62,501 nucleotides of DNA, from the NCBI GenBank assembly GCA_018062425.1, contig JAGOSH010000003.1, positions 1 to 62,501 of the forward strand, given 5' to 3'. The DNA comes from Minisyncoccota bacterium. GTDB taxonomy: Bacteria > Patescibacteriota > Minisyncoccia > Phycocordibacterales > UBA9973. The notes beneath the pieces are model-generated. The model saw nothing but the letters and a program-made list of their open reading frames with translations, searched no databases and was not told the origin of the DNA. Each line of letters starts with the position of its first letter. Position 1 is the first letter of the stretch. Position numbers and translations under genes: made by a program. Positions 12,887-29,179 of this stretch are shown piece after piece.

Positions 12887-14626
12887 TTAGTATACTTCCT
12901 GCTGGTAACATTTTTCGCAGTACACAATCTCCGGTCGGTCTGGGGCATAACTGGTTTCGAATTCTACATTACACTGACCTTGATGATTGGGGTGATTTTC
13001 TTTACCACACATACATTGACGATGCCAAAGTTTTAAAGGGGTACGTTTTTGTAACCTTTCATAATGTCGTGCATTAGGAGATTTTCTGGGAATTGGTACA
13101 TTCATTCTTTTATAAAAATTAAATTCACCAGGAGTAATGTTAAAAACTTTGGTTGAATAAAATTCTGTCGAATCCAAACAATCAAAAGCTTCTTTTAAAA
13201 TATCTTCTGAAACTTCCTTAATATCATCTGGGATATTTTCTAGACTCATGGTTGATTTATTATTTGTCTCTTGCGCGTTACCCCATAAAAATCCTTTTTT
13301 ATGGGTTTCTTCTTCGCTTAACACAGGAAAATACTCTTGCGCAATAGTTTTATTATAAGGAAATGGACTAAGTTCTCCTGGAAAAAATTCACCGAAACCG
13401 TATTTCGCTCCTCTCCTATCAACGTAAGGCATATCGTCCATGTGTTTCTTTATTTTTTCTACTATTTCGAAATAATCGTCTTTTGTATATTGTTTATTAA
13501 AAATACAGTATTGTTTTTTGTGTACTCCAATACAACCAAATAAATTTTCTGAATTATGACAAAACAACGAGTAACTCACGTTGTACCCTCCCCAACAACT
13601 TAACGAAAACAAAAGTTTACTACCGTTATCTCCTGAATCTATAACCTCGTACATTTGTTCTGCTGTAGCACCAGCGCCATACACATCATGGGTATCCTTA
13701 AGCCCAGCTGCACCACTTACACAATAAGAGCAATCCTCAGCATTATCTAGATCAAAAGATTTTTTGCAATTTTTTGTATTTGTAAAATAATCACCAGTGG
13801 AATTTACGGCATTTGTCTGATGAGAGTATTTATGAACTGCATTGATGCACAATTCATCAAACTCCTCTTTCAATTCAACAATCGAATTATAAGAACCTAA
13901 ATTCAATTCTTTTATTTTTTTATCATACTCAGGTTTACTTAATTGAATATTTCTAAAAACATATTGTTTGTTTCTTAAATTACTAGACATAAAACAATCT
14001 GTACATCCACGACAATCAAATAAAAAATAACTAGTAGTAATATTTACAGAATCTACTAAGTACTTACTTCCATAGCAACTTTGGCAATTAACCAAATCGT
14101 AACAAAAATCACATTTTATTGACCAATACAAATCAAGAGAATCTTTACTGTTTACGACTTTAGAACAATACATTACATCATCGCACCCCCACATTCCAAA
14201 AGACATAAAAACATTTTTGAGCTCACCGGCGTAATTAGTATAAGGACTATTGAAACTTTTAGCGTTAAAAAGAGGAATACTCGGTACTGTATTAAGAAGT
14301 TCTTTCCATTGCTGGAAAAAAGGCTTAGAAAAATCATAGTCTTTACCATAAGAAAGTGAATCAAATTTGTCACTCCACCAATAATCTCGATCCACTATAC
14401 TAACACCTGATTCTTCAGAAAAAGAAGTTATAACAGATTTACCAGTAAGCGAACATTTCCGTTTATATAAAAACCTTTCTCCTCTCCAAGCCATTCTCCT
14501 AACCAATCTACACTCCGGACAAAAAGTCGGTGGTGGAACTTTTATCTTTTCATAGAAAGAAAAGTCGTCTTCTTCTATAACGAAATCTTTTTTACAATTT
14601 TGGCAGTTTTTATTTTCGCTTGGCAT
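12887..14626 (-). CDS. cysteine-rich protein with terminal zinc-ribbon modules (paralog A, 579 aa)
   Basis: The N-terminus has CQNC-x24-CPEC. Two central repeats end in CFMSSNLRNKQY and LFGCIGVHKKQYCIFNKQYTKDDY. The C-terminus reads ...SYAPDRPEIVYCEKCYQQEVY. Paralogous to 17469..19214 and 19218..20915. Confidence 0.7.
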   Translation of the reverse strand: MPSENKNCQNCKKDFVIEEDDFSFYEKIKVPPPTFCPECRLVRRMAWRGERFLYKRKCSLTGKSVITSFSEESGVSIVDRDYWWSDKFDSLSYGKDYDFSKPFFQQWKELLNTVPSIPLFNAKSFNSPYTNYAGELKNVFMSFGMWGCDDVMYCSKVVNSKDSLDLYWSIKCDFCYDLVNCQSCYGSKYLVDSVNITTSYFLFDCRGCTDCFMSSNLRNKQYVFRNIQLSKPEYDKKIKELNLGSYNSIVELKEEFDELCINAVHKYSHQTNAVNSTGDYFTNTKNCKKSFDLDNAEDCSYCVSGAAGLKDTHDVYGAGATAEQMYEVIDSGDNGSKLLFSLSCWGGYNVSYSLFCHNSENLFGCIGVHKKQYCIFNKQYTKDDYFEIVEKIKKHMDDMPYVDRRGAKYGFGEFFPGELSPFPYNKTIAQEYFPVLSEEETHKKGFLWGNAQETNNKSTMSLENIPDDIKEVSEDILKEAFDCLDSTEFYSTKVFNITPGEFNFYKRMNVPIPRKSPNARHYERLQKRTPLKLWHRQCMCGKENHPNHQGQCNVEFETSYAPDRPEIVYCEKCYQQEVY

Positions 14627-14677: not shown

Positions 14678-16126
14678 CTATATCATCGGTTCGGCTTCTT
14701 GTTCTTTGGGTGTATCGTCCTTTTTCTTACCAGATATTGCTTCTTTTTCTTCTTTACTACGGATAATGGTGGCTTCTTCTTCGGCTATCAATTTCTGGGC
14801 ATCATCTTTGGAGATAGAATATTTCCTGCGAGAAGATGCAATTATTTCTTCCTTGGAAGATTTATATGGTGGTGGTAGGACCCGAAGCGTTTCCGCCGAA
14901 AACGGGTCATACGATTCCCCATCGATGGTCATCTTGATATAGATTTCACCTACCGCCAGGTTGATCATATCTTTCACATCAAAAACTGGAGCGAATTCTG
15001 GCTTCAGTTTTACAGCGTCTTCACCACCCACCCGGAAAGAAATAATACTTCCCGTGTTTCCAAGCACTGCTTGATAAATCTTGGGATTAATCTGCCCCAC
15101 GTATTGGTGCGCCATAGTTAGATTTAGCCCATATTTACGCGCCTCAGACAGGATGTTTTCAAATGTTTGAGTCACTATATTTTGAAACTCGTCTACGTAC
15201 ACATAGAAATCATTGCGGTCCTTCTCTGCGATGTTGGCACGCTCCATACCGGCTTGTTTGATCTTGGTCAAGAACATCGAACCGAAGAAGCTGGAATTCT
15301 CTTCCCCGATTTTACCTTTAGAAAGATTAATGAAGATAATTTTCTTCTCATTCATCAATGTCGAAATATCAATTTTGTTTTGCTTCTGTCCGAAAATATT
15401 ACGGAGCAATGGGTCGGATAGAAACTGTCCGAGTTTGTTGACCAGTGGGATAATAGCGTCAGTGTCGAATTTCTCCGACCAGTCGGCGAATTCGATAGCG
15501 AAGAAACGCTTCACCATGTCGTCTTGAATGTACTCCACTACCTTCTGTCTATAATTTCTGTCGGTCAACATGGAGATCATCCCGCGCATAGTGGCATACG
15601 GATAGTCTAGTAACGCCAGACAAGTAAACCGGAAAACGTGTTCGAGACGTGGTCCCCAGTTGGAACCGAATTGTTTCTGTAAAACTTCGATGAGTCCTTG
15701 AGTAAGTTGAAATTTGAATTGCGGATCAACGTTCGCCAGCGGGTTAAAAGAAACTGGGAAGTCTCTGTCCGACGGATCAATGATACATACGTCTTCGATA
15801 CGCTCCTTTGGAATGTAGTCGAGCATTGCGTCTATCACATCGCCGTGCGGGTCAATGAGACATAGTCCGTGTCCGTAGGTGATGTCCTGGCGGAGCATGA
15901 GCTCTAGGAGTTTGGTTTTGCCGACTCCTGACTTGCCGATGATGTACAGATGGCGACGACGGTCTACGCGTTTGATACCGAAAATAAACTTCTTTTCTTC
16001 GAGTGCCGCTACATAGTTTGTCCGCCCGATAAAGGACACGTCCTCGGGATTCACCTTGCCGAAAATAGGTAACTCCGGTGGTGGAGGCGCGTATTTGATT
16101 ATCTGGACTCTGTTTAGTTTCGACAT
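14678..16126 (-). CDS. soluble VirD4/TraD-like (T4SS coupling-protein family) P-loop ATPase, 482 aa
   Basis: Walker A GKSGVGKT followed by IDPHGD, Walker B FYVYVDEFQN, and the AHQYVGQ motif. No TM helices. Paralog of 20908..23178. Confidence 0.75.
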   Translation of the reverse strand: MSKLNRVQIIKYAPPPPELPIFGKVNPEDVSFIGRTNYVAALEEKKFIFGIKRVDRRRHLYIIGKSGVGKTKLLELMLRQDITYGHGLCLIDPHGDVIDAMLDYIPKERIEDVCIIDPSDRDFPVSFNPLANVDPQFKFQLTQGLIEVLQKQFGSNWGPRLEHVFRFTCLALLDYPYATMRGMISMLTDRNYRQKVVEYIQDDMVKRFFAIEFADWSEKFDTDAIIPLVNKLGQFLSDPLLRNIFGQKQNKIDISTLMNEKKIIFINLSKGKIGEENSSFFGSMFLTKIKQAGMERANIAEKDRNDFYVYVDEFQNIVTQTFENILSEARKYGLNLTMAHQYVGQINPKIYQAVLGNTGSIISFRVGGEDAVKLKPEFAPVFDVKDMINLAVGEIYIKMTIDGESYDPFSAETLRVLPPPYKSSKEEIIASSRRKYSISKDDAQKLIAEEEATIIRSKEEKEAISGKKKDDTPKEQEAEPMI

Positions 16127-16148: not shown

Positions 16149-16850
16149 ATGAGTATGAAAATACACCGATTTATTGGAGACTTTAATTTAACTGGAAAAG
16201 AGGTAGATATTACTGACCCCGAAAATATCAAACAAATAAAGGCTGTTTTGAGGATGGAAGTTGGAGACGAACTAATCCTGTCCGATGGGATAGGTGCAGA
16301 GGCCAGGGTAAAAATTATTGAAATATCCAAATCCAAAATGGTGTGTGAGGTTCTGGAAACAAAGAAAACAGAAGAGTCTGACAAGACAGTAAGTCTGTAC
16401 CTGGCGATTTTGAAAAAAGAAAACTTTGAACTCGCGGTGCAGAAAGCAGTGGAATGCGGGGTGGCACAAATAATCCCTGTCATCACCGAACGTACGGTCA
16501 AAGTCGGACTAAACATGGAAAGGCTGGAAAAAATAATAAAAGAAGCAAGTGAACAGTCTGGCAGAAGTATCCTACCGAAACTTTTTGAGACGATGAATTT
16601 CGTCGAGGCATTAGAGCATGGTAAAGAAAATCAAGAAAAAGTAATTTTTCATCTAGTAGATACAGAATACCTACCCGAAAAAAATGCATCCTCGGTTAGT
16701 ATTTTTGTCGGGCCTGAAGGCGGATTTAACGAAAGCGAAGTAAATCTAGCAAAAGAATCCGGCTACACTGTCGCCTCTCTGGGCACACTCACCCTCCGTG
16801 GTGAAACCGCAGCAATAGTAGCCACCTACCGAGCAGTGCAAGGAATTTAA
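16149..16850 (+). CDS. rsmE: 16S rRNA (uracil1498-N3)-methyltransferase
   Basis: RsmE-like N-terminus (M)KIHRF..., a PUA-like domain, and the C-terminal SPOUT motifs GPEGGF and LGTLTLRGETA. The true start may be the ATG at 16155, 7-8 nt after TATCAT at 16142-16147. Confidence 0.85.
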   Translation: MSMKIHRFIGDFNLTGKEVDITDPENIKQIKAVLRMEVGDELILSDGIGAEARVKIIEISKSKMVCEVLETKKTEESDKTVSLYLAILKKENFELAVQKAVECGVAQIIPVITERTVKVGLNMERLEKIIKEASEQSGRSILPKLFETMNFVEALEHGKENQEKVIFHLVDTEYLPEKNASSVSIFVGPEGGFNESEVNLAKESGYTVASLGTLTLRGETAAIVATYRAVQGI

Positions 16851-17458
16851 CTCTTGTTTTTGTATTTTAATCGCAAGATAAGAACAGTTACTATGAAAGT
16901 CGAGATGACAGACCGCGAACCATAAACTATGGGTAGTAACGACATTGTTTTTATCGGTTCAACCAAACCAAAAAGAGAGGCTGCGCAGTTGGTGGACCAC
17001 ATCCCGACAGATTCAGTATTTTCTGTAGCTTTCCATAATTGCACCAAGGTAGGCAAATAAGCAATAACGAGTATGGCTTGGACAGCTAAATGTGCCAAAA
17101 TGTTTTGACCACTTATAATCCATGCAATAAAAACAAAAACCACAGCGCCCAAACAACGTTTTTCAAACGTATTAAAAATCTTTCTGGAGTCATTCCTGGA
17201 CAAAATAACTCCGCATATAATAAATACCGAAAGTGTATCAACAACATTATAAGAATTAGCCAACAAACCCGGAACACCACTTTCTTTAAAATTGGTAACA
17301 AGACTGAGTAAAGTTGCAAACACAAAGAAAATCCACGTCGCTAGTACCGGCTTCACTTTTCCTTTTTCAATACCAACCAAATATATAATAGTGTAGGCCA
17401 GGACGCACAACACCATAGCAATCTGAGGCAAAAATTTTATTATTGGGAATAACGTCAT
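16847..17458 (-). CDS. hypothetical polytopic membrane protein
   Basis: About 6 hydrophobic helices. The start is placed at internal Met (MTLFPII...), 10 nt after the stop of the upstream Cys-rich gene. The longer ORF (to 17563) would overlap that gene. Confidence 0.55.
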   Translation of the reverse strand: MTLFPIIKFLPQIAMVLCVLAYTIIYLVGIEKGKVKPVLATWIFFVFATLLSLVTNFKESGVPGLLANSYNVVDTLSVFIICGVILSRNDSRKIFNTFEKRCLGAVVFVFIAWIISGQNILAHLAVQAILVIAYLPTLVQLWKATENTESVGMWSTNCAASLFGLVEPIKTMSLLPIVYGSRSVISTFIVTVLILRLKYKNKS

Positions 17459-17468
17459 TGAATTAGGT

Positions 17469-19214
17469 TTAATACACCTCTTGCTGATAACACTTTTCAC
17501 AATACAGTGTGTAGCCTTGTTTCGGGTCAAAGAGGGACGAGATGCTTTGGTTACACTTTGCACACTCAGCCTTGTACGAAATACCTAGCGGTACCATGGT
17601 AAAATGATTTTGAATACGCAAAGAAGGATGCACCAATGGAATCGGCAATTGCATGACCCGATAAAATTGGAGTTCGCTTTCGGTAATTCGAAAAGGCCTT
17701 CCAGTTACTTCACATTTGATGGCAAAATTTATAATGTCATCTTTAGTACCCTCTATCGTTTCTGGAATATCGCTACCAGATAAAACTTTGGTGACTCCTG
17801 CATTAGTATCGGGCTCTGACGCTATATACCCGCCAAGCTTTATAATTTCCTCGTCAGTAAGCGGAAAGGAAACTTGAGCGTGGGAAAAGTTGTATGCTTG
17901 CGCAGAAAATTCAAACCCTAATCCGTCTCCATACTCTCCCCTTTGCATCATGTCTGTTTTAATTGTGTCTACCAAGGCGAAATACTCTTCTGGTATGTAT
18001 TGTTTATTGAGCACGCAATAAGATTTATTTTGCAATCCAAAACACATGAAAGAATTGCTGACATTTCGGCAGTTAAAAATAAACTCGGAATCGGTGCAGA
18101 ATTTGCCCGCCACCGAAAACTTTACATTGTTAGATGACGAACCAATGTTAGTGGCGCTATAGAGCAAGCTTGAACCACCAGAGAATGTGACATCCATCGA
18201 GTCTTTGTGGGCAATGCACCCATCTGAGTGGCGAATATGTTCGGATTTTTCTGAATCAGTGACATTGATAAGGTCTTTACTGTTTTCAAGGAGAACACCA
18301 TCAACCCCGTTAACGACGGTGTTCATAGATGCATTGACCGGGGTTTGCTTTACCAGGGCCCAGAAACTTTTATCATACTGTTTTATTTTGTCTCTGGTGA
18401 GGGGGTACACAGCCTGCATAAAATTTTCATATGCTTCTTTTGAAAGCTGCTCATTCCACACACGATACTTTGCATTACGGAGCCCTACACAACCAAAACA
18501 ATTTGTAGAGTTGCGACAGTCAAATAAAAACATACTGTCGGTACAATCTTTGGAAAAATACATAAAAGCCGACTTGTAAGAATTATCAACAAAGGCGCTG
18601 CAGTATATATGATCCGAACTATGAATTGCCCGAGAATCCATAATGTCTTTACTTTTATTAACCAAGCTACAGTACCAAGCATTTTCTACAGAAAAACAAC
18701 CTCCGGCATAATATACATTCTTGGTATCTCTTCCTCCGTTTGAATATTCACTGTTGATGCTGGCTGGGTCACGATTTAGAAACGATGGAACAGGAAAAGA
18801 CTTTCGCATAGTAGATAGAACACCCATAGGACCTTCGTCTTCTTTGTACAATACACCGTACAAGAATGGATCAAATTCACCACCAGTGAAATACTTGTAA
18901 TCAAAAACAGGGAAAGGACATTCCTCTGAAAAGACTGAAATCATCGACTCGGTATGCCCTGTCGCATCACACGGCCTCTTGAAAAGTCGGAGTAGTCCCA
19001 TGTGTACAAAACGTCGCATTCGCCGACAAGTTGGGCAAAAGTTTGGCGGTGGAACACGAAATGTTTTCAAGAACCCAATGTCTCCTTCCTCAATATTAAA
19101 TTCTCCTTCACAATGTTTATGTTCGCCTTTCCATCTGCAAGTACGCGCATGAGGAACCAGATCTTTTAAGACTTCGTCGATTAATGCGTCGAATTTTGGG
19201 GTTTTGGATTCCAT
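17469..19214 (-). CDS. cysteine-rich protein with terminal zinc-ribbon modules (paralog C, 581 aa)
   Basis: The N-terminus has ...PPPNFCPTCRRMRR. Central motifs are NCFGCVGLRNAKY and FMCFGLQNKSYCVLNKQY. The C-terminus has CAKC-x17-CEKCYQQEVY. Confidence 0.7.
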   Translation of the reverse strand: MESKTPKFDALIDEVLKDLVPHARTCRWKGEHKHCEGEFNIEEGDIGFLKTFRVPPPNFCPTCRRMRRFVHMGLLRLFKRPCDATGHTESMISVFSEECPFPVFDYKYFTGGEFDPFLYGVLYKEDEGPMGVLSTMRKSFPVPSFLNRDPASINSEYSNGGRDTKNVYYAGGCFSVENAWYCSLVNKSKDIMDSRAIHSSDHIYCSAFVDNSYKSAFMYFSKDCTDSMFLFDCRNSTNCFGCVGLRNAKYRVWNEQLSKEAYENFMQAVYPLTRDKIKQYDKSFWALVKQTPVNASMNTVVNGVDGVLLENSKDLINVTDSEKSEHIRHSDGCIAHKDSMDVTFSGGSSLLYSATNIGSSSNNVKFSVAGKFCTDSEFIFNCRNVSNSFMCFGLQNKSYCVLNKQYIPEEYFALVDTIKTDMMQRGEYGDGLGFEFSAQAYNFSHAQVSFPLTDEEIIKLGGYIASEPDTNAGVTKVLSGSDIPETIEGTKDDIINFAIKCEVTGRPFRITESELQFYRVMQLPIPLVHPSLRIQNHFTMVPLGISYKAECAKCNQSISSLFDPKQGYTLYCEKCYQQEVY

Positions 19215-19217
19215 ATT

Positions 19218-20915
19218 TTAATATACCTCTTGCTGATAACACTTTTCACAATACACTATTTCCGGTCGTTCGGGAGCATAGCTAGTTTGGATTGAAATTT
19301 GGCATTTACCGCAATTCCTCTCAAAAAGCCGCCATTTGTTAACTCTGTCGATCCGTCTGTTGTGTCTGCAATTGGGACAACTCCGCGGAACGGGTAATGA
19401 TAAGCGTTTTAATAATTCCAACTCACCAAGTGCTATACGATAAGGTTTAGTACACAGAGTACAAGCCAACACTTCTTTGGTAACAGCATCTGTAATATCG
19501 GAAATACTATCAGGCAAGTCAGCAGTATTTTTGGTTATATTGTGTTCTCCGCTTTTAATCTCTGAAAAGATAAAACCCTTGTTTTGAATTTCTTCTTTCG
19601 TCATTGGAAAGTATTGGATAGCATAAGACGCGTTGTAAGAAAATGGCGACAAATCATAAGGCATAAACTCACCGTATTTGAATATTCTTCCTTGACTATC
19701 CACATAAGGGTTCGCTTCTAGACTATTTATTATTTGTTCTCGCAACTTCTGGTATTCTTCTTTTGAATACTGCTTGTTTAAAATACAATACTGTTTGTTG
19801 CGCAAACCCACGCAACCAAAGCAGTCACTCGAGTTTATTACATACATACTGTATTCAACGTTTTTAACATTACTCCACACACCCGAAGAATACTTCACCT
19901 GGTATATACCTTCACCTGCCGTTATAGAATCAACACAAGACTCTACACCGCTACCCCATTCGCTGATATCATATGAGTCTTTAAATGAAGGCAAGGTTAT
20001 AAACTGGCAATATTTGGCATCATCTGCAGAAGCAGTCATGTAAGAATTCTTAACATTTTTAGAAGCGTATACATACTCACCGGTTACGTTTACGTTCATC
20101 CGGCCGTACATGAAACGACGGGGAAACTTATTCCAAAAGTCATGAATACTTGATTGAATCAATTTATGGTAAGAATATTTGTCTAAATTCATACTTTTTA
20201 TTTTTTCTAAATATTCTTCTTTAGAGTATGCTTGGTTGAATATGTGGTAGCTTTTATTACGCAAATTTACACATCCAAAGCAATTCGTACAACTGACACA
20301 ATCTTTGGAATACCATACATCGACTGATTCTGCACAATTTTCAGAAAAGAAAATCCGTGACCCATCACCACCAATACATTCGTAAGCAAATTCAGTCTTA
20401 TTCATCATCAAGCAGTCAGCAACATCTTTAGAATGGTTTACGATGGTAGAATAGTATACATTTTCGCAAAAGTCGGCATTGAATAGCAGGTAACAATTTT
20501 TACATCCGCCTGCGTGATTTATGTAATCACTGTTTTTGAGGGTAGAATAAGTAACTACCAAATTCATTTTGGGAGTTTTTAACATCAGATCCTTCAGTTG
20601 GTCAAAAAAGTTACGACTCGAGTCGTATTCCATTGCATACTCTGTACCATCCCAGGAGTCACCCCACCAACAAGATCCACAATATATAGTTTTATGTATC
20701 TCGGGATCAAAAATAGTAACTACATTTTTAGTGCACAGATCACAAACAGCTTTGTAAAGTGTTCGCTCATTGCGAAAAGCCATCCGTCTTTGCAATCTGC
20801 ATTCCGGACAAAAAGTCGGTGGTGGAACTTTTATCTTTTCGTAGAAAGAAAAGTCTTCGGGTTCGATGATAAAATCTGTTTTGCAATTTTGGCAGTTCTT
20901 GGTTTCGTTATTCAT
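19218..20915 (-). CDS. cysteine-rich protein with complete N- and C-terminal 8-Cys zinc-ribbon modules (paralog B, 565 aa)
   Basis: N-terminal module: CQNC-x24-CPEC-x18-CDLC-x17-CGSC. C-terminal module: CTLC-x24-CPNC-x18-CGKC-x17-CEKC. Central motifs are NCFGCVNLRNKSY and DCFGCVGLRNKQYCILNKQYSKEEY. Its start overlaps the ATPase stop by 8 nt. Confidence 0.75.
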   Translation of the reverse strand: MNNETKNCQNCKTDFIIEPEDFSFYEKIKVPPPTFCPECRLQRRMAFRNERTLYKAVCDLCTKNVVTIFDPEIHKTIYCGSCWWGDSWDGTEYAMEYDSSRNFFDQLKDLMLKTPKMNLVVTYSTLKNSDYINHAGGCKNCYLLFNADFCENVYYSTIVNHSKDVADCLMMNKTEFAYECIGGDGSRIFFSENCAESVDVWYSKDCVSCTNCFGCVNLRNKSYHIFNQAYSKEEYLEKIKSMNLDKYSYHKLIQSSIHDFWNKFPRRFMYGRMNVNVTGEYVYASKNVKNSYMTASADDAKYCQFITLPSFKDSYDISEWGSGVESCVDSITAGEGIYQVKYSSGVWSNVKNVEYSMYVINSSDCFGCVGLRNKQYCILNKQYSKEEYQKLREQIINSLEANPYVDSQGRIFKYGEFMPYDLSPFSYNASYAIQYFPMTKEEIQNKGFIFSEIKSGEHNITKNTADLPDSISDITDAVTKEVLACTLCTKPYRIALGELELLKRLSLPVPRSCPNCRHNRRIDRVNKWRLFERNCGKCQISIQTSYAPERPEIVYCEKCYQQEVY

Positions 20916-23178
20916 CGCCGTTTAGGATTTTGCGTAGTACATCTTCGGGAACTTCTTTCGGTGTTTCGCTTACAGGCGGAGCTTTTGGTGGTTCGGGCGG
21001 TTTTGGAACTGGTGGCGGTATTGGAGTTGGATCTGTCTCGGTCACCTGAGTATCATCTTTAACCAAAGTCGGTTTTGGTTCAATTTTTGGAAGCTCTACT
21101 TTTGGAGGTTCTACTTTAACCGGCTCGGGAGCCTTTACTGGTTCAACTTTAATTGGTTGTGGTTCTGGCTTTGCCTCGCTGAAGTCTTTGACGAAAGCGG
21201 GTTGTGGGTTTGTTGGCTCTACTTGAGTTTTATCGATTAGGTTTTTGAGTGCATTCATTTTGTCTTCGCCGGCACTGCGGTCGGATGGATTACTCACTGG
21301 CTTCTCTATCGGCTTCAACGCTGAAAGTGAAATAGGTGCTACTTTTTCGGGTTCTACTTTAACCTCCTCGGTTATAGCGCCAGTTTGTAGTGCGGTAGCT
21401 AGTGCAGATTTGAGCGATGTTTTTTGTCCGGCTTCGTATTGTTTCTTTACCCTCTCGTCTTTGTTAAATATTTTTTTAAGATTACCAAAAACTCCAGGCT
21501 TGTGTGGCCTATTGTCTACTGGTATGTCAGTACGTCTGGTATCGTGGGCTTGATTTGGACGATCCGGATGTGGACGTGGGGGCCTAGATTCTTCCCTTCT
21601 TTCTGGTTCGAATTCTATACCCAAATCAGCCAAAGGTTTGTAATAAATAGCCTTGTTCTTGGCAGTGTCTGATTCATTTTTCAAAGGTTTCAATTCCCCT
21701 GCTTTTATCTTCGCTATACAATCCTTACAGTAAACTGGTCGTCCTGGTTGAGGCTCGAACGGCACAAAAGTTTCATTACCACAAACAGAACACTGGGCTT
21801 TGAATTTATCACCACCAGAGCCGGCTCCGCCTGATTTGCTCGTGCCTGTGCCACCCTCACTCGCAGCTACGGTACCGCTCCATTCCACTATATCTGCTTC
21901 GACTTCTTCACGATTGCGACAATACAGAGCACGGGAACTTTCAATAACTGCTTGCTCAATTTCTTTGTTCACTGTTTTAATAAGCGGGGGCATGGTCTTG
22001 GCAGAAAATGGACGTGAGGTCATACCGTCTACCATCAGCTTCAAATATATTTTGAAGTTTGGCAGGTTGACTATGTCTCCTGGGGTGAATTCTGGATCAA
22101 ATTCTTTCTCTAAATATTTTGTATCCTCCGCACCTGTGCGGAAGATGATCATGGTACCGATGTTACCGAAAATAGAATCTCGCATAGAGGAGCTTTCGCG
22201 AGTTACCAGCTGGGCTGTATACTGGTGTGCTACAGTCAGAGACAAACGGTATTTGCGAGCTTCCGATAGGATGCTGGCGAAAGAGTCCGTCACAAAGTTC
22301 TGGAACTCGTCGACATACAGATAGAAATCCCTACGCTCATCCTCTGGGATACGTACGCGCTCCATAGCAGCGAGCTGGATTTTGGTAATCAACATTCCAC
22401 CAATTAGACGCGAGTTGTCCTCGCCGATGCGGCCTTTGGATACGTTCACCAGCAATATCTTGCCCTGGTTCATCAGGTCGAAAATATTGATGGTGCTTTT
22501 TGACTGACCGACGATGTTACGAATGACGAAAGTGGATAGGAATTGACCTACTTTGTTCTGAATCGGCGCGATGGCTTCATTACGGAACTTGTCCTGCCAG
22601 GCTTCGTACTCGTGCACCCAGAAAGCTTTAATCACCGGGTCTTTCAAATTACCGATAATCATCTGGCGGTAATCCTTGTCCACAAGCATACGGGTAACAC
22701 CGAGCAGTGTGGTACCAGGAGTGTCGAGGAGCGCCAGGATGGTGTTGTTCAAAATGTATTCCATACGAGCAGACCAAGCGTTGGCCCAAATCTTGGTAAA
22801 TATACCCATGAGTCCGGATGCTACCAAGTGTTTATGTTCGGGATTTTCTATTTCGAGTACGTTGAATCCGATATGAAAATCTGTGTCTGACGGGTTGAAA
22901 TACACCACGTCTTTGATACGCTCTGGAGGAATGGAAGATAAAATAGTTTCCACCAGCTCACCGTGCGGGTCCACTACGCCGACACCCTCGCCGTTCATGA
23001 TGTTCTGATAAACCATGTTGGTCATCAATCCGGATTTACCAGTACCGGATTTGCCGAGTATGTACATGTGCTGACGACGGTCCTTGCGCTTGATGCCAAA
23101 GAGCTGATTCTGATCGCGATAAGTAGAGTAACCGATATAAGTTATATCCCGATTCTCCGGGAGACCTGGAATTGCCAT
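20908..23178 (-). CDS. soluble VirD4/TraD-like P-loop ATPase with C-terminal CxxC-x17-CxxC zinc ribbon and Pro/Lys/Glu-rich tail, 756 aa
   Basis: Walker A GKSGTGKS, VDPHGE, Walker B FYLYVDEFQN, and AHQYTAQ. Further C-terminal come CSVC-x17-CKDC and a low-complexity region of roughly 250 aa (PEPVKVEPPKVELPKIEPKP...). Confidence 0.8.
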   Translation of the reverse strand: MAIPGLPENRDITYIGYSTYRDQNQLFGIKRKDRRQHMYILGKSGTGKSGLMTNMVYQNIMNGEGVGVVDPHGELVETILSSIPPERIKDVVYFNPSDTDFHIGFNVLEIENPEHKHLVASGLMGIFTKIWANAWSARMEYILNNTILALLDTPGTTLLGVTRMLVDKDYRQMIIGNLKDPVIKAFWVHEYEAWQDKFRNEAIAPIQNKVGQFLSTFVIRNIVGQSKSTINIFDLMNQGKILLVNVSKGRIGEDNSRLIGGMLITKIQLAAMERVRIPEDERRDFYLYVDEFQNFVTDSFASILSEARKYRLSLTVAHQYTAQLVTRESSSMRDSIFGNIGTMIIFRTGAEDTKYLEKEFDPEFTPGDIVNLPNFKIYLKLMVDGMTSRPFSAKTMPPLIKTVNKEIEQAVIESSRALYCRNREEVEADIVEWSGTVAASEGGTGTSKSGGAGSGGDKFKAQCSVCGNETFVPFEPQPGRPVYCKDCIAKIKAGELKPLKNESDTAKNKAIYYKPLADLGIEFEPERREESRPPRPHPDRPNQAHDTRRTDIPVDNRPHKPGVFGNLKKIFNKDERVKKQYEAGQKTSLKSALATALQTGAITEEVKVEPEKVAPISLSALKPIEKPVSNPSDRSAGEDKMNALKNLIDKTQVEPTNPQPAFVKDFSEAKPEPQPIKVEPVKAPEPVKVEPPKVELPKIEPKPTLVKDDTQVTETDPTPIPPPVPKPPEPPKAPPVSETPKEVPEDVLRKILNGDE

Positions 23179-23184
23179 GAGGAA

Positions 23185-23193
23185 ATTATAGCA
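23185..23193 (-). promoter_or_regulatory. extended -10 box (TGCTATAAT) 6 nt upstream of the ATPase start
   Basis: Minus strand reads tgcTATAATttcctcATG with no Shine-Dalgarno sequence, which implies a leaderless transcript. Confidence 0.55.
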
Positions 23194-23200
23194 TGCAACT

Positions 23201-23238
23201 AGCCGAAAAAAAGCCCAGGTAGGGGCTTTTTTTCGGCT
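23201..23238 (-). terminator. intrinsic terminator after the DUF3467-like gene
   Basis: 16-bp stem agccgaaaaaaagccc/gggctttttttcggct with a short loop. Confidence 0.7.
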
Positions 23239-23671: not shown

Positions 23672-24004
23672 TTACTTAGGAATAATTCCTCCTAACGAAT
23701 CTACGTCACTAGCAATTTTTTCTCCAGCTAAACTTTTTAAGTGTTTCTGTCCTAAATACTGTTTATATTTTTTTTGTAATTGTTTTAAAACATCACTATG
23801 TGAAGGCATTTCACTTTCGAAATTATTTATTTTGTTATCAAAATCATTGCTATACACCGTACTGCCTTCAGGATTTATTTTCGTATTAAAATCTTCGGTA
23901 CTATATATACCAACACCAAAAAGATAGTCGCGTTGTGTTTTATTCAGACCTAATCCATCAAAAGGATCATTCTTCATTTCATTATTAAAGTTAAAATCTT
24001 CCAT
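23672..24004 (-). CDS. hypothetical protein (110 aa)
   Basis: ORF only. The N-terminus MEDFNFNNEMKND resembles that of the neighbouring 286-aa ORF. Confidence 0.45.
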   Translation of the reverse strand: MEDFNFNNEMKNDPFDGLGLNKTQRDYLFGVGIYSTEDFNTKINPEGSTVYSNDFDNKINNFESEMPSHSDVLKQLQKKYKQYLGQKHLKSLAGEKIASDVDSLGGIIPK

Positions 24005-24070
24005 AAAGATAATTTAGACAAGTAAATATTAATATTTTGTTTATATTTTTATTATACACAAGCGCTTCCA

Positions 24071-24119
24071 GCCCTACAACTTTCCCATCTCCATACAATG
24101 CATACTCTCCAAACATCGC
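24071..24119 (-). pseudogene. TfoX N-terminal domain gene fragment
   Basis: Encodes AMFGEYALYGDGKVVGL, against AMFGEYALYCDGKVVGL in the intact gene at 27024..27407. My hand alignment gives 41/50 nt identity to 27290-27339. Confidence 0.55.
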
Positions 24120-24980
24120 TTACGAACTAAATCCATCTTTTTCATCTTTTGGTTTGTTAGGGTTATGAAAAATCCCTCTTTCCATTGATTTTGTTATCGG
24201 ATTATACGTAAATGACTTTAACCCTTCTATATTTGGTAAATCTGCTTCTGATGTAGGAGTGATGGTTATACCGCCATTTACAACATCTCCTTCTTTTACC
24301 ATGTTTCCTCTTAGTTCCATGTGTTGGTCTAATGGTCTTCCTATTGAATCTTCTAGTGCGGACTGCTTTGCAAATAAATGCCTACCTACTGGTTTATCAA
24401 GCAAAGAGCGCTTTTCCATTCCCTTGTAAGGTTCTCCTTTACGCCACCATGTTGTATCTTTGCCAAATCTATCCTTTTTTATTTGTCCCATGTCATTATG
24501 AATAATCCAGTTATCTAAATTATCAATAGATTCGTCGTAACTATAAAATTCATTTCTAGGAATTGCTTCGGTCGTAGCAGAAAGACCATATTTTTTTTGA
24601 AAAGCAACTCTTCTTTTGTATTCGCGACGAGAAAGATACTTATCCGGTATAAAATCTTTAGTATTATCTCTAAGTTCAAAACCACCCTTATATTCCATAA
24701 GGAAATACATTTTATCCCCAATATTTGCAAAATGAGAACCATGAATGTTAATTATCTTGGTTCCTTCAGGTAAAGTAGGAGTAGTTCCTGAAAAAGATTC
24801 ATTGGGTGCAACTAGTTCTTCTTCTAATATGCGATTGGCATACAGATTACCTGCCAAAGTTTCATCCATTTTACTTTTATCCATTGCTTTAGATAAAAAT
24901 ATGCTTTTAACAAAATTTGATACTTTGTTTGGAGCAGGTTTTTTTTGGTCATTCTTTTTACCTAGATTAAAATTTTCCAT
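24120..24980 (-). CDS. hypothetical protein (286 aa)
   Basis: ORF only. Its stop codon is followed in frame by the TfoX fragment. Confidence 0.5.
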   Translation of the reverse strand: MENFNLGKKNDQKKPAPNKVSNFVKSIFLSKAMDKSKMDETLAGNLYANRILEEELVAPNESFSGTTPTLPEGTKIINIHGSHFANIGDKMYFLMEYKGGFELRDNTKDFIPDKYLSRREYKRRVAFQKKYGLSATTEAIPRNEFYSYDESIDNLDNWIIHNDMGQIKKDRFGKDTTWWRKGEPYKGMEKRSLLDKPVGRHLFAKQSALEDSIGRPLDQHMELRGNMVKEGDVVNGGITITPTSEADLPNIEGLKSFTYNPITKSMERGIFHNPNKPKDEKDGFSS

Positions 24981-24995
24981 AAAAGTATTATGTGG

Positions 24996-25676
24996 TTATG
25001 ACAACCTCCTTCCTTTGCGGTTAATAGTAATCTCTGTTATCTCTATTTGCTTTGGCAATTTTAATAGATACAAGACTATATCTGCTACATCATTCGGATC
25101 CATCCATTCTGTTGGGTCTTCTATCTTCTTTCCGTAATCCTTTTCATGCATTTGCGTATTCATTCCACCGCAGTGAACATAGATATTTCTACTTTTTGTT
25201 TTTGCTAACTCTAGTCCAATATTATATGAACCACCACGCAATCCATATTTTGTTGAAGTATATGCCAGCTGATCATTAAATCCGGATTTCAAATCTGCCG
25301 TTGTGCCGATATTCAATATATCCGCTTCATTTTTGACAATGTTATCAAATAAGGAAGATAGAAAATACAGTGGCGCAATAGTGTTAACTTTGAAGGCTCT
25401 TTCGAACTTAGAATAAGTAATTCCGTTTATCTTTTCCATCGCCACAATTGCTGCACAATTTATAATTGCATCAAAATCACTATGGTTTTCTTTGATTATA
25501 TTAACAGCATTATCAATGTCTTTTTCCACTGCAAGGTCACAAGCAATATTAATGACACCCAATACATCGCAAGACGTTCTGCTCACATTAATCACTTCCA
25601 GCTTTTCAGTTTTACACAAGCTTGCAATCGCCTTGCCAAGACCATCACTAGCTCCTAATATAATTATTTTCTTCAT
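24996..25676 (-). CDS. short-chain dehydrogenase/reductase (SDR)
   Basis: ILGASDGLGKAIA (TGxxxGxG-type motif), NCAA, and the catalytic YTSTK (YxxxK). Confidence 0.85.
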   Translation of the reverse strand: MKKIIILGASDGLGKAIASLCKTEKLEVINVSRTSCDVLGVINIACDLAVEKDIDNAVNIIKENHSDFDAIINCAAIVAMEKINGITYSKFERAFKVNTIAPLYFLSSLFDNIVKNEADILNIGTTADLKSGFNDQLAYTSTKYGLRGGSYNIGLELAKTKSRNIYVHCGGMNTQMHEKDYGKKIEDPTEWMDPNDVADIVLYLLKLPKQIEITEITINRKGRRLS

Positions 25677-25692
25677 ATATATATATTAATTA

Positions 25693-26061
25693 TTACTTCA
25701 TAAACCACCATTGCCTAAATTCAACACAATTCTTGGAATCATCAAATTTTACCACAAATACACCATCTAAATGGTAACGCTTATCTTGATAAGTATATTT
25801 ATTTACCCAATGAATAAACGCAACACCATTTTCAATGGTATATATTTCGTAATCTAGAGTAATGTCAGTAAGATTATCTATATCATTCCAGTAACTTTGA
25901 ATTTCTTCCTTTGTGGTCGCGGACTTAAAAGGTCTCTCGTAATAATTCTTGGTTTTAGAAAACAAACTCAACACACTATCTTTATTCTTATTGACCCAGG
26001 CGTTCTTAAACTCTTCCATCCATTTTACAACATCATTTTTTGTAATCATATTGGTAGACAT
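25693..26061 (-). CDS. NTF2-like / SnoaL-like small protein
   Basis: 122 aa with W-rich motifs at both ends (VVKWMEEFKNAW..., ...FRQWW), typical of the NTF2-like fold. Weak call. Confidence 0.45.
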   Translation of the reverse strand: MSTNMITKNDVVKWMEEFKNAWVNKNKDSVLSLFSKTKNYYERPFKSATTKEEIQSYWNDIDNLTDITLDYEIYTIENGVAFIHWVNKYTYQDKRYHLDGVFVVKFDDSKNCVEFRQWWFMK

Positions 26062-26065
26062 AGTA

Positions 26066-26551
26066 TTAGATGACTTTTTTTAATTCTGCTAAATCTAACT
26101 CTGTTCTACTGTCAATATAATTCCCTTCTATTTCGCCCGAACCATTAATCCAAACCTTTTCTGGAATAAATTTATAAACTCTTCTTGGATATGATGTCAG
26201 GAACATAGCAACATCTTTCATTTTATGTTTAGTCCTAGTGTAGTGACACTTAAGCCCCACAATAATATCTATAGGATTAGTTAATTCGTAAGCCTTACCC
26301 TGAAAATAAACCCCAACCCCAGTGCCTGATGGAACGGTGGAATCATAAATGGTAATAAAAGTATTTGAATTGTTTCTTATATTTTTTGAGTGCTGGTTTT
26401 CCTTCCAAGATAATATATAAAAATTAAGCTCTTTATCATAAGAGCAATACACAGGAGTATTCCAAGGCAAATTGTCTGGAGTTATTGTAGCCAGATTAAG
26501 ATACTCGATTTTTTCTATTATTTTACTTGCAGCTCTTATAAGCTCTTCCAT
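26066..26551 (-). CDS. pyridoxamine 5'-phosphate oxidase-family (FMN-binding split barrel) protein
   Basis: The pattern LATITPDNLPWNTPVY...FITIYD... is typical of the family. Confidence 0.55.
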   Translation of the reverse strand: MEELIRAASKIIEKIEYLNLATITPDNLPWNTPVYCSYDKELNFYILSWKENQHSKNIRNNSNTFITIYDSTVPSGTGVGVYFQGKAYELTNPIDIIVGLKCHYTRTKHKMKDVAMFLTSYPRRVYKFIPEKVWINGSGEIEGNYIDSRTELDLAELKKVI

Positions 26552-26608
26552 ATCTGTTTATTATACACAAAACCACTTCTTTTTGGGTGGACATTTAATG
26601 TATCATTT

Positions 26609-26983
26609 TTATGATTTATTTGATTCTTTATCTTTTTTTGTTGGATGACTCACATAGCTTCTTTGCATGTTTTTCTCCATTTTCTCTTGATACACCAAAG
26701 AAAACTCTTCACTAGTAAAATGAAAGCTGTTTAAAATGTCAGCTAGATACATATAGCAGTCGGCTATTTCTTCTAACATTTCTAGTCTAACTTCTGGATT
26801 ACTAACAATTTGTTCTGTTTTTTTCTTTTTTATAATATCGATAACTTCGCCAACCTCTGCCACCAAATAAGCCACCCAAGCAAGTCCTGTTTCTGGATCC
26901 ATGGCTGGCCACTTATCTTTATTTTTCTCGTAAAGTTCTTTTGACAAAGAGAGCATTTTGTCAACGCTAATATTCTTTTCCAT
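26609..26983 (-). CDS. MazG-like nucleotide pyrophosphohydrolase
   Basis: EVGEV...EEIADCYMYL pattern (the EExxE/D metal-binding helices of all-alpha NTP-PPases). Confidence 0.6.
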   Translation of the reverse strand: MEKNISVDKMLSLSKELYEKNKDKWPAMDPETGLAWVAYLVAEVGEVIDIIKKKKTEQIVSNPEVRLEMLEEIADCYMYLADILNSFHFTSEEFSLVYQEKMEKNMQRSYVSHPTKKDKESNKS

Positions 26984-27023
26984 GTTTAGATTATATCAAA
27001 GTAAATAAATAAACTGAAAACCC

Positions 27024-27407
27024 CTATTTACGGGACTTCTTGCTGACTTTCTTTACTTGGCTCGCCGAAGCCTTGCGCGTAGGCGGCTTTGGTTTCTTGG
27101 GTTTCTTGTCTGGCAAAGACTTCGCTATATCAAGCAGTATTTCCGGAAGATTTTTCAATTTTGAAAGTTGCACTTCCTCTACGACGTAAAAAGGCTTCGA
27201 GCCCGGATATGCTTCATCCTTGTCACAAATCCCCTCCAGCTCCGCCGACGCAGGCAGTATCTTCACATATAACTGATCATCACACACCAGCCCAACGACT
27301 TTGCCGTCACAATACAATGCATATTCCCCAAACATCGCCCGAGTAGTGAATCTATTGTCATCAAGTTTTTCTAGAATGAATTCTATTGTTTCCTTTTGGG
27401 TGGACAT
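27024..27407 (-). CDS. TfoX N-terminal domain protein with Lys-rich tail
   Basis: RAMFGEYALYCDGKVVGLVCDDQLYVK matches the TfoX_N core. Confidence 0.7.
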   Translation of the reverse strand: MSTQKETIEFILEKLDDNRFTTRAMFGEYALYCDGKVVGLVCDDQLYVKILPASAELEGICDKDEAYPGSKPFYVVEEVQLSKLKNLPEILLDIAKSLPDKKPKKPKPPTRKASASQVKKVSKKSRK

Positions 27408-27416
27408 TGCAAATTT

Positions 27417-28250: not shown

Positions 28251-28280
28251 AACTTTATGTTTACTCTAAAAGAGTATAAA

Positions 28281-29111: not shown

Positions 29112-29179
29112 TACTTTAACCTTAAACTTTTTATGAATAAAAACTAAACAAATTATACATCAAAAAAATAAGTAAAACG

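Follow-up and report, generated by a model that had tools for sequence, protein, structure and literature searches.

The window analysed here, the whole 62,501-nt stretch of contig JAGOSH010000003.1 of a Minisyncoccota bacterium, carries on its minus strand, in this order, grpE, dnaK, a low-GC island, a gene for a 756-aa ATPase (20908..23178), p565 (19218..20915), p581 (17469..19214), a gene for a 482-aa ATPase (14678..16126), p579 (12887..14626) and dnaJ. The products of p565, p581 and p579 are paralogs of 565, 581 and 579 aa. The stop codon of the 756-aa ATPase gene overlaps the start codon of p565 by 8 nt (ATGAATAA), p581 begins 3 nt downstream of p565, and p579 lies 51 nt downstream of the 482-aa ATPase gene. 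A 16-bp hairpin (23201-23238) is followed by TGCTATAAT, a site of the extended -10 type that ends 6 nt before the ATG of the 756-aa ATPase; together (23185..23238, minus strand) they likely mark the start of an ATPase-p565-p581 operon.

The p565 protein has 31 Cys residues and all four CxxC..CxxC fingers of its family, with CxxC motifs starting at residues 8, 36, 58 and 79 (N module) and 485, 513, 535 and 556 (C module). The evidence strongly supports a soluble, cytoplasmic protein, with neither a signal peptide nor a hydrophobic segment, laid out as fingers N1 and N2, solenoid A, solenoid B, an acidic linker, and fingers C1 and C2 (coordinates in this paragraph are all on the minus strand). 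Finger N1 (aa 5-50, 20766..20903) reads CQNC-x24-CPEC followed by an Arg-rich helix, and finger N2 (aa 51-95, 20631..20765) reads CDLC-x17-CGSC and is of the zf_Tbcl_2 / TIGR04272 type. Half A of the core (aa 96-245, 20181..20630) is a predicted solenoid of 12-residue turns with a Cys/Ser/Ala ladder; it includes the coil C206-x2-C209-x2-C212-x2-C215 and closes with the cap CFGCVNLRNK..YSKEEY and a helix. Half B (aa 246-400, 19716..20180) is its homologue, in which D316 and G321 are invariant and the cap reads CFGCVGLRNKQYCILNKQYSKEEY. The acidic linker domain (aa 401-478, 19482..19715) covaries with finger C1 (aa 479-528, 19332..19481), a homologue of N1 that reads CTLC-x24-CPNC and is again followed by an Arg-rich helix, and the protein ends with finger C2 (aa 529-565, 19221..19331), CGKC-x17-CEKC plus the terminal helix YQQEVY. 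N1 and C2 are referred to as the outer fingers, N2 and C1 as the inner ones.

The first-pass annotation had pointed to identical Cys spacing at the two ends of p565, and this is borne out, with gaps of 24, 18 and 17 residues in each module. A gap-free BLASTP alignment of the two modules spans 88 residues (25% identity, E 4e-13), and profile-profile comparison by hhalign gives 99.6% probability (E 1.9e-24), so the modules are homologous rather than alike by chance. The alignment also contains the shared stretch h-x-h-h-x-[KR]-h-x-h-P-x-P and, behind the second CxxC, an Arg-rich helix; both features had been proposed, the latter as an RR-rich linker. The earlier term 'mirror-image' suits the order of domains (fingers-core, then core-fingers) but not the modules themselves, which are direct repeats running in the same N-to-C direction. 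The core is internally duplicated, as had been suggested (residues 97-245 against 247-397, hhalign 99.8%, E 2.4e-30), and both halves close with CFGCV[NG]LRNK.Y....N..YSKEEY.

Each module is strongly supported as a CxxC-x24-CPxC treble-clef-like finger followed by a CxxC-x17-CxxC (zf_Tbcl_2) finger. The two CxxC pairs with a 17-residue gap in p565 are C58..C61-x17-C79..C82 and C535..C538-x17-C556..C559, and the C-terminal finger of p581 keeps the same spacing (C551..C554-x17-C572..C575). Against the zf_Tbcl_2 model (PF23477, Pfam cut-off 27 bits), p565 scores 28.0 and p581 just under it at 25.6, while p579 gives no match; the family scores 18.8 and 24.9 bits with NCBIfam TIGR04272, for which the cut-off is 36. 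The zf_Tbcl model (PF13451, gathering cut-off 24 bits) gives 14.9 bits for p565 residues 5-45 and 15.3 for p579 residues 7-44. The N1/C1-type finger covers positions 4-45 of the 48 in this model, and by sequence N1 and C1 resemble zf_Tbcl without belonging to it. The proposal that the modules are metal-loaded holds up to this extent: four predicted zinc sites are plausible, and fingers 2 and 4 reach the Pfam zf_Tbcl_2 threshold. It is plausible, judged from sequence, that p565 holds up to four such sites and that the metal is zinc rather than iron. CxxC-x17-CxxC domain proteins of Methanosarcina mazei bind zinc by ICP-MS (PMC12704099). A fifth metal could be bound by the near-invariant coil C206/C209/C212/C215, a candidate site that lies outside the account proposed below. 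A literature search found no paper naming PF13451, PF23477 or TIGR04272.

The core had been described as solenoid-like with a repeat of about 20 residues. The solenoid is supported by prediction (pLDDT 86.9, pTM 0.87), but the period is 12 residues, not 20. Two AlphaFold models were obtained, with pLDDT 86.9 (p565) and 84.2 and a pTM of 0.87 in both, and the strand spacing in the p565 core corresponds to 12 residues per turn. Coevolution, computed with gap filtering and the zero-sum gauge, peaks at i,i+12 (mean 0.50 against a background of about 0.05); the sample amounts to about 450 effective sequences, at which the finger-core signal is modest. AlphaFold2 may over-predict beta-solenoids for repeat sequences (PMC11795689). 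Taken together, the models and the coevolution strongly support a beta-solenoid that is duplicated and very narrow, each turn taking 12 residues. The 'Cys ladder' of the core is, with similarly strong support, mostly interior packing, because its Cys residues swap freely with Ser, Ala, Val and Thr. Sequence searches of the PDB with p565 and with the family profile returned non-significant matches only, and Foldseek (both models against the PDB, that of p565 also against BFVD) found nothing significant at the level of the whole protein; the local matches were small zinc-ribbon domains only. Against the PDB, all Foldseek matches had E >= 0.046 and TM-scores of at most 0.21, the top weak ones being left-handed beta-helix acyltransferases and gamma-carbonic anhydrases. 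The core differs from the left-handed beta-helix in having a period of 12, not 18, and no Hexapep match in Pfam, and as modelled it is a solenoid without a relative in the PDB. A paper on a 'knotted solenoid' was considered as a possible relative and concerns an unrelated Brevundimonas fold.

Residue pairs that coevolve include D476-K503, R43-E416, R43-D329, E192-R524 and D164-R504, and in family means finger C1 carries a charge of +4.9 against -6.5 for the linker. The Arg-rich helices of the fingers would covary with acidic residues of the linker and core. Judging from pTM and modest coevolution, the fingers may work as zinc staples that dock against linker and core, giving one compact particle. 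All three paralogs share the C-terminus YCEKCYQQEVY, as the first-pass annotation had noted, and this tail is not confined to the present genome: 630 of 666 family members end six residues past the last Cys, with the pattern Y[QN]xE[VI]x. The YQQEVY stretch forms the terminal helix of the last finger in the AlphaFold model (H557-564) and may have a role in docking.

The family comprises at least 7,984 clusters at 90% identity, or 3,880 representatives at 50% identity, and every named record comes from Parcubacteria. Its proteins contain 4-5.5% Cys and are on the whole acidic, with a pI of 5.6-6.3 and a mean net charge of -4.6. PADLOC returned no match for the three paralogs, PHROGs gave only matches of E 0.003 or worse, a tblastn search of 50,697 phage records found no homologue, and no model in PADLOC, PHROGs or NCBIfam covers the family core. 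A literature search likewise found no paper describing this solenoid family. It is a very large, previously unstudied protein family of these ultra-small bacteria.

If the Cys spacing is functionally meaningful, it might be expected to be conserved among homologues. This test, set beforehand, came out in favour: the 16 terminal Cys are 93-100% kept in 120 orthologue clusters. Across the wider family, the Cys of the outer fingers are retained in 631-655 of 666 members (at least 95%), and the inner-finger positions in 332-483, except C58 (577) and C485 (663); finger N2 is absent from about half of the family. The dominant Cys patterns among 167 clusters, counted per finger, are 4444 (66 clusters), 4144 (20), 4044 (19), 4114 (10) and 4414 (9). 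Conservation from paralog to paralog is high in N1, in the caps (201-240 and 361-400) and in C2; in the solenoid bodies and at residues 401-420, sequences agree inside an orthologue group and diverge between groups. The constant, indispensable parts would then be the outer fingers N1 and C2, the tail with its fixed length of six residues, and both solenoid caps, with the inner fingers N2 and C1 apparently dispensable and lost repeatedly.

Ligand losses in p581 and p579 are as first described, the 16 sites reading CCCC CTDY CTHL CCCC and CCCC CTDY CSSA CCCC, respectively, a Cys pattern of 4,1,1,4 in both. The further description of these paralogs as partly degenerate is right about the lost ligands but not about decay. 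The p581 type comprises at least 120 clusters with identities of 55% or more, varies little in length and has conserved replacement ligands of its own (H32, H87, C99 and H529), and its zinc-less fingers are still modelled well (pLDDT about 86-96); it is an old, conserved, zinc-poor subfamily. In p579, the loss of finger C1 is common only to five close orthologue clusters, and this lineage looks like a recent loss. Since inner fingers appear dispensable and repeatedly lost, p581 and p579 are probably working zinc-poor versions rather than decaying genes.

Family genes form tandem cassettes of varying copy number beside two ATPases, with up to nine copies inside 20 kb. Across 83 family-centred loci, no gene other than the ATPase recurs as a neighbour; it accounts for 47 genes in 31 loci, and 30 of the 47 are adjoined by a family gene on the same strand. 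Counted among them are 15 of the 30 ATPases that are less than 78% identical to the window copy, for which the gene order is reversed. In about one-third of the family-centred loci of at least 20 kb there is just one family gene, and a majority of these loci show no ATPase gene inside 10 kb. Among ATPase-centred metagenome loci, 65 of 80 contain family genes, and in 42 of 75 a family gene on the same strand lies directly upstream; these loci are all close relatives (81-96% identity), so that their synteny is not independent evidence. Cassette content turns over quickly. A relative at 83-88% nucleotide identity exactly lacks the p565-p581 block and has another paralog after the 482-aa ATPase gene, and close relatives carry from 0 to 5 family copies between the two ATPases. 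A DUF3467 gene upstream of the ATPase was considered as a cluster member and set aside, being present in 4 of 163 loci only.

The two ATPases are soluble, TrwB/VirD4-like paralogs. The 756-aa protein has a long Pro/Lys/Glu-rich tail and a zf_Tbcl_2 finger, CSVC-x17-CKDC (aa 459-490; 21709..21804, minus strand), that clears the cut-offs of both Pfam zf_Tbcl_2 (46.5 bits) and NCBIfam TIGR04272 (49.2 bits); the 482-aa protein is without this finger. The models TrwB_AAD_bind, T4SS-DNA_transf and TraG-D_C all score above cut-off, the closest solved structure is TrwB (E 5e-7), and scores with NCBIfam equivalog models all stay below cut-off. The P-loop (GKSGTGKS / GKSGVGKT) is close to the N-terminus, at about residues 43-50 (756-aa protein) and 65-72 (482-aa protein), and no N-terminal membrane anchor is seen (top 19-residue Kyte-Doolittle hydropathy 1.16 and 0.92). 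There is no virB4, relaxase or other T4SS gene among the scanned genes of the 62.5-kb window, and no virB4 or relaxase in loci L001-L003. Phage genomes contain only distant relatives of the ATPase, among them Bacillus phage G gp156 and SPO1 gp27.4. A 2025 survey of 2,918 Patescibacteria genomes counted 5,713 VirD4-type T4CP homologues, 148 of them near virB4, and concluded that exaptation 'cannot be ruled out' (PMC12102498).

The preferred reading, drawn from gene order only and given a probability of about 0.45, is that family members are interchangeable partner subunits of the soluble TrwB/VirD4-type ATPase pair, whether as adaptor, regulator or client. In this scheme the constant ends of the family proteins would contact the motor, which has a CxxC-x17-CxxC finger in one of its two copies, and the paralog-specific solenoid faces could give each copy its own target.

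Other explanations have to be weighed against this. Family members could be secreted T4SS effectors, with the ATPases as true coupling proteins that read the fixed C-terminus (..YCExCYQxEV-x) and a VirB4 channel leading into a host. This would fit the nearness of the ATPases to the TrwB and VirD4/TraD models, the rapid cassette turnover among close relatives and the fixed-length tail in 630 of 666 members, and T4SS are widespread in Patescibacteria and reported to be essential in one cultured species. It is nonetheless unlikely, as both ATPases are without a membrane anchor, no T4SS gene is found among the scanned genes of the window and virB4 is close to only 148 of the 5,713 T4CP homologues; a particle that is rigid and holds four predicted zinc sites is poorly suited to unfolding-dependent export, the orthologue groups are well conserved, and the single architecture and length throughout are unlike effector repertoires. 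About equally improbable is a role in handling nucleic acids together with an FtsK/HerA/TrwB-type translocase, in DNA uptake, segregation or repair, with the ribbons binding DNA or RNA. Most FtsK-HerA superfamily ATPases act on DNA, zinc ribbons with Arg-rich helices would suit such a role, and one source labels a member 'Zn ribbon nucleic-acid-binding protein'. Against this, the family is on the whole acidic, its conserved Arg residues covary with acidic residues of the same protein, and structure searches bring up generic zinc-finger likeness only. ComEC adjoins the array in L002/L003 and L011, but this is rare (about 3 of 83 loci), and the TfoX_N gene 4 kb off in the window is inside a low-GC island.

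The flanking grpE-dnaK and dnaJ genes of the window raise the idea that the cluster is part of the Hsp70 system, the ATPases remodelling proteins and the family serving as co-regulated zinc-finger cofactors. DnaJ is indeed found in 72 and DnaK in 31 of 80 ATPase-centred loci, and in five loci (L027, L028, L048, L068 and L071) dnaK is directly upstream of the 756-aa ATPase gene and dnaJ follows the 482-aa one. This arrangement is, however, confined to the clade whose ATPases share 78% identity or more with those of the window, and distant clades retain the ATPase-family linkage without dnaK or dnaJ. A CIRCE operator was searched for in the window and is absent, a strong hairpin precedes the 756-aa ATPase gene, dnaJ has its own promoter-like site, and the window already has ClpB, which together leave a chaperone role improbable to a greater degree than the preceding two. 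Similarly low odds attach to the family acting alone, as a structural, polymer-forming solenoid or a zinc buffer, with ATPase adjacency an inherited order without functional meaning. The many loci with family genes and no ATPase within 10 kb would be explained in this way, as would the high Cys content (4-5.5%), and beta-solenoids such as bactofilins polymerise (PMC4372379). On the other side, the linkage persists through gene-order inversion in distant clades, start and stop codons overlap or almost touch, ATPase and family have a finger domain in common, and the ATPase is the sole recurrent neighbour in 83 family-centred loci. The least probable reading by some distance makes the solenoid an enzyme, such as a beta-helix of acyltransferase type, whose active site would be formed by the KDxxD loops K163/D164/D167 and K312/D313/D316. 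Hints in its favour are the weak Foldseek likeness to gamma-carbonic anhydrases and to acyltransferases with a beta-helix, the invariance of D316 and G321, and an N-terminal GNAT fusion in one member (P0247); every such Foldseek match is non-significant, a turn of 12 residues does not fit the hexapeptide-repeat helix with its 18, no Pfam or NCBIfam enzyme family model matches, and the fusion is a single case that may be a gene-calling artefact.

A wider claim built on the partner-subunit reading, that zinc-capped solenoids and two soluble ATPases make up a previously unrecognised cytoplasmic machine general to Parcubacteria, is tentative and on balance doubtful. If true, such a machine would explain thousands of 'orphan' coupling-protein genes of Patescibacteria that have no T4SS link. 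The solenoid paralogs would be exchangeable specificity cassettes, swapped even among close relatives, and in one clade the motor would have been inserted into the grpE-dnaK-dnaJ operon. Much of bacterial diversity lies in the Patescibacteria, whose lineage-specific proteins mostly have no assigned function; a candidate partner family that shares a zinc-finger domain makes the role of VirD4-type ATPases experimentally approachable. The loss of the inner sites and retention of the outer two also provide a natural experiment on which zinc sites are structural luxuries.

Among known systems, the type IV coupling proteins (TrwB, VirD4, TraD) have a motor domain homologous to that of the ATPases, and in both cases partners are encoded alongside. 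Unlike them, the ATPases are soluble, have no virB4 or relaxase nearby and form two paralogs that bracket the cassettes, and the solenoid family is without a relative among known T4CP adaptors or effectors. The antifreeze protein of the beetle Tenebrio molitor is a narrow beta-helix of 12 residues per turn, and p565 shares with it and with hexapeptide beta-helices a short turn and a tight interior of Cys and small residues, a weak likeness of fold. It differs in being cytoplasmic, with a solenoid that is duplicated, helix-capped and flanked by zinc fingers, and disulfide bracing is unlikely in p565 because of its cytoplasmic location. The LIM domain, a module for interactions between proteins, resembles the p565 module in having eight ligands in two successive fingers. 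The family profile matches the second LIM finger of CRP at C2 (C..C-x17-YC..CY), but not significantly (E 0.022), with E 0.022 or worse for PDB LIM proteins as a whole; the match to the Pfam LIM model (PF00412) has 10.5 bits (E 0.75) against the 22.9 needed, the inter-finger spacer of p565 is 18 residues compared with 2 in LIM, and p565 is without LIM's His/Asp ligand pattern. The two-CxxC pattern common to N1 and C1 is that of zf_Tbcl (PF13451), a probable treble-clef domain. The spacing of N2, C2 and the 756-aa ATPase finger, CxxC-x17-CxxC, is that of the small zinc proteins A00184 and A01980 of M. mazei; those are stand-alone proteins, whereas in p565 the finger is a quarter of a duplicated eight-Cys module carried on a 300-residue solenoid.

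Three paralogs of one Parcubacteria family are found near each other on the reverse strand of the window: p565 (19218-20915), a 565-aa ORF, p581 (17469-19214; 581 aa) and p579 (12887-14626; 579 aa). Full-length pairwise identities are 39% (p565/p579), 28% (p565/p581) and 32% (p581/p579), and no signal peptide or membrane helix segment was found in any of the three (highest 19-residue hydropathy ≤1.0). The CxxC motifs of p565 start at residues 8, 36, 58 and 79 in the N-terminal module and at 485, 513, 535 and 556 in the C-terminal one, with gaps of 24, 18 and 17 residues in each, confirming the identical spacing reported in the first-pass annotation. The two modules align without gaps across 88 residues (BLASTP E 4e-13), and module-against-module comparison of profiles from 122 family members gave a probability of 99.6% (E 1.9e-24). 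Their description as mirror images holds for the order of domains (fingers-core, core-fingers) but not for the modules themselves, which form a direct repeat with both copies running N to C. Each module consists of two fingers, N1 and N2 at the N-terminus and C1 and C2 at the C-terminus. N2 and C2 are CxxC-x17-CxxC domains (Pfam zf_Tbcl_2, 28.0 bits vs a cut-off of 27) that also match TIGR04272, under its cut-off, and N1 and C1 resemble zf_Tbcl (PF13451) at only ~15 bits vs a cut-off of 24.

An alignment of homologs showed the cysteine spacing to be conserved, with each of the 16 terminal cysteines conserved at 93-100% across the 120 closest clusters. Cysteines were then counted per finger in 666 non-identical full-length members, and dominant patterns were determined for 167 single-linkage clusters at ≥52% identity. 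Written in the order N1,N2,C1,C2, the complete pattern 4,4,4,4 is carried by 287/666 members and dominates 66/167 clusters, followed by 4,1,1,4 (130 members, 10 clusters), 4,1,4,4 (71 and 20), 4,0,4,4 (61 and 19) and 4,4,1,4 (13 and 9). Loss of the outer fingers (N1, C2) is very rare across the family, and C58 (577/666) and C485 (663/666) are retained even where the remaining finger cysteines are absent. The ligand losses previously quoted for p581 and p579 were found as described, and p565 is indeed the only complete paralog in the window; these family-wide patterns show, however, that its completeness reflects a family rule and not local decay. The p581 subfamily (at least 120 clusters, 55-94% identity, 581-582 aa) has conserved substitutes of its own (C26-x5-H32-x2-C35, H87, C99 and H529), and its zinc-less finger regions are modelled at pLDDT ~86-96. 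Loss of C1 in p579 (CPNC to SPNA) is shared with no more than five clusters of close orthologues (61-81% identity), in which the surrounding scaffold is retained and, in two of the five, C2 is also gone; the wider p579 subfamily retains C1.

The C-terminal sequence YCEKCYQQEVY is identical in all three proteins, as noted earlier. Across the family, 630/666 members end exactly six residues past the last cysteine with Y[QN]xE[VI]x, and the identical tails thus represent family conservation. The tail is modelled as a helix following the second zinc knuckle (H557-564 in the p565 model), with docking as one possible role. The last finger of p579 (aa ~536-579; window 12887-13020) carries a Cys/His-rich extra loop, CMCGKENHPNHQGQC, in place of a plain CxxC; the corresponding loop in its orthologues reads MCDKKHSHHEGKC. 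This loop may provide an extra metal site or alter the existing one.

The AlphaFold2 models of p565 (pLDDT 86.9, pTM 0.87; 118-sequence alignment) and p581 (pLDDT 84.2, pTM 0.87) bear out the proposed solenoid-like core, as does coevolution. In the models, short strands recur every 12 residues and one helix closes each half. The centre is an internal duplication, as had been proposed, with residues 97-245 homologous to 247-397 (hhalign 99.8%, E 2.4e-30) and a CFGC..LRNK..YSKEEY motif closing both halves. The ~20-residue repeat unit was not upheld. Among 477 gap-filtered members (~450 effective sequences), coevolution peaks sharply at separation 12 (mean 0.50 in half A vs ~0.05 elsewhere), with 26 of the top intra-core coupled pairs at exactly that separation, which sets the repeat at 12 residues. 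Perfect repeats are a known cause of over-predicted solenoids in AlphaFold2 (PMC11795689); those of the p565 core are imperfect, and the couplings are consistent with the solenoid model, although both depend on the same kind of alignment. In most core cysteine columns Ser, Ala, Val, Thr and Leu freely replace Cys, a pattern consistent with small residues that fill a very tight interior and not with metal ligands. This does not apply to C206 (80%), C209, C212 and C215 (96-98%), or to C368 and C377. C206 to C215 form one CxxCxxCxxC coil (window 20271-20300), with a cysteine at every third residue of the 12-residue coil, and this coil at the half A cap may bind a fifth metal; its counterpart in half B retains only C365 (59%), C368 and C377.

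A p565 search limited to 8,000 candidates gave at least 7,984 homologous clusters at the 90% identity level. At the 50% level there were 3,880 representatives, 1,454 of them scoring <1e-30. Named sources are all Parcubacteria/Paceibacteria (e.g., Nomurabacteria, Staskawiczbacteria, Jorgensenbacteria, Sungbacteria, Minisyncoccia) or carry the unspecific labels 'Patescibacteria' or 'bacterium'; nearly all members measure 550-600 aa and have hypothetical-protein annotations. In a single case, a 731-aa metagenome protein (P0247), a GNAT acetyltransferase domain is fused N-terminally and most finger cysteines are lost, which may be a gene-fusion artefact.

Two ATPases of the TrwB/VirD4/TraD family are encoded beside the paralogs on the same strand, one of 756 aa (20908-23178) and one of 482 aa (14678-16126). 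At its stop codon the 756-aa ATPase gene overlaps the beginning of p565 by 8 nt, the p565 stop is 3 nt from the p581 start, and p579 follows the 482-aa ATPase after 51 nt. The 756-aa ATPase has its own zf_Tbcl_2 finger (residues 459-490, 46.5 bits), after which a ~265-residue low-complexity Pro/Lys/Glu-rich tail (aa ~490-756; window 20908-21700) repeats KVEP/KxEP units; the 482-aa ATPase has a short Lys/Glu tail only. Both match the C-terminal half of phrog_5156 (E 1e-66 and 4e-53), a family without an assigned function, and are distant kin of Bacillus phage G gp156 and SPO1 gp27.4. A perfect 16-bp hairpin, flanked by A/T runs at either end and followed by a TGCTATAAT box, occupies 23185-23238. 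The hairpin is terminator-like on either strand, and the box ends just 6 nt ahead of the 756-aa ATPase ATG, suggesting a leaderless or nearly leaderless mRNA. A related locus, L084, aligns collinearly with the window across both ATPases at 83-88% nucleotide identity and lacks exactly the p565-p581 block (window 17460-20898 vs L084 8668-8678). The junction coincides with the stop codon of the ATPase gene, so that a cassette has been precisely gained or lost between closely related genomes. A different paralog occupies the p579 slot in L084, and family genes thus act like cassettes that can be exchanged while their slots are conserved. A 238-aa GTG-start ORF (16847-17563, reverse strand), with a hydrophobic product, shares 95 nt with the 3′ end of p581; the L084 alignment begins at 17459, so the true start of this ORF probably lies shortly after the p581 stop.

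The remainder of the window is ordinary chromosome (grpE, dnaK, dnaJ, clpB, alaS, infB, typA, mur and ddl genes). Within it the classical grpE-dnaK-dnaJ operon is interrupted (11677-32755, reverse strand): grpE (32150-32755) and dnaK (29206-31113) are separated from dnaJ (11677-12768) by ~5 kb of low-GC DNA (33% vs ~41% GC) and then the ATPase/solenoid cluster. The low-GC island (24000-29200) carries SDR, SnoaL-like, PNPOx-like, MazG-like and TfoX_N-domain genes, and two 276-277-aa proteins without a family match. In related genomes the 756-aa-type ATPase comes directly after dnaK, and the island looks like an insertion separating dnaK from the cluster. In a few genomes ComEC (DUF4131/Competence/Lactamase_B) directly follows the family array (L002 15365-17871, L011 and L066).

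The structural account of modules, fingers, core and tail is well supported. Regarding function, the order of the genes, their translational coupling, the finger shared with the ATPase and the pattern of conservation make the family members candidate interchangeable partner subunits of a soluble ATPase pair. The constant ends (N1, caps, C2) would engage the ATPase motor, and paralog-specific solenoid faces, with conservation of 0.6-0.8 within orthologue groups and identity of only 0.15-0.35 between groups, would supply specificity. Rival readings include an autonomous structural protein and an Hsp70-linked role. Across one-per-species genomes, 235 family genes were found in 83 loci (at most nine per 20 kb); the sole recurrent neighbour is the TrwB/VirD4-like ATPase family (47 genes in 31/83 loci), and any other neighbour cluster occurs in ≤10 of the 83. 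A same-strand family gene adjoins 30 of the 47 ATPase genes, among them 15 of the 30 ATPases <78% identical to the window copies, where gene order is inverted (482-type, cassettes, 756-type). Among ATPase-centred metagenome loci, which are close relatives (81-96% identity) and not independent, 65/80 have family genes, one immediately upstream in 42/75, and the usual order is 756-type, 0-5 cassettes, 482-type, dnaJ.

Kinship of the ATPases to coupling proteins also brings in the rival that the family are T4SS substrates; neither ATPase has a membrane anchor by hydropathy, and no secretion-system genes were found among the window genes. A nucleic-acid factor is a further rival, on which charge bears: family-wide, C1 carries +4.9 and the acidic linker between half B and C1 carries -6.5, with an acidic pI of 5.6-6.3 for the proteins as a whole. 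Charge-complementary inter-domain couplings (D476-K503, R43-E416, R43-D329, E192-R524, D164-R504) join Arg-rich finger helices to acidic linker or core residues, and the 'RR-rich linker' would then be an intramolecular docking surface, not a nucleic-acid-binding one. A pTM this high for a multi-domain chain of 565 residues argues for fingers in a fixed arrangement rather than displayed on flexible tethers. Under the last rival the proteins are enzymes. The weak top Foldseek matches are left-handed beta-helix enzymes, none of the PDB relatives being significant for the p565 or p581 model (best E 0.046, TM-score ≤0.21), and matches to viral models are limited to small zinc-ribbon domains. The partner-subunit reading makes the family a concrete candidate partner for orphan coupling-protein-like ATPases.

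Comparison with LIM domains gave a family-profile match to the second LIM finger that was not significant (E 0.022). The individual fingers are established domain types; what is new is the duplication of the eight-Cys module, the double solenoid with its 12-residue repeat, and the association with orphan coupling-protein-like ATPases. These three were not found in the literature searched, and none of the family and defence model libraries searched covers them.
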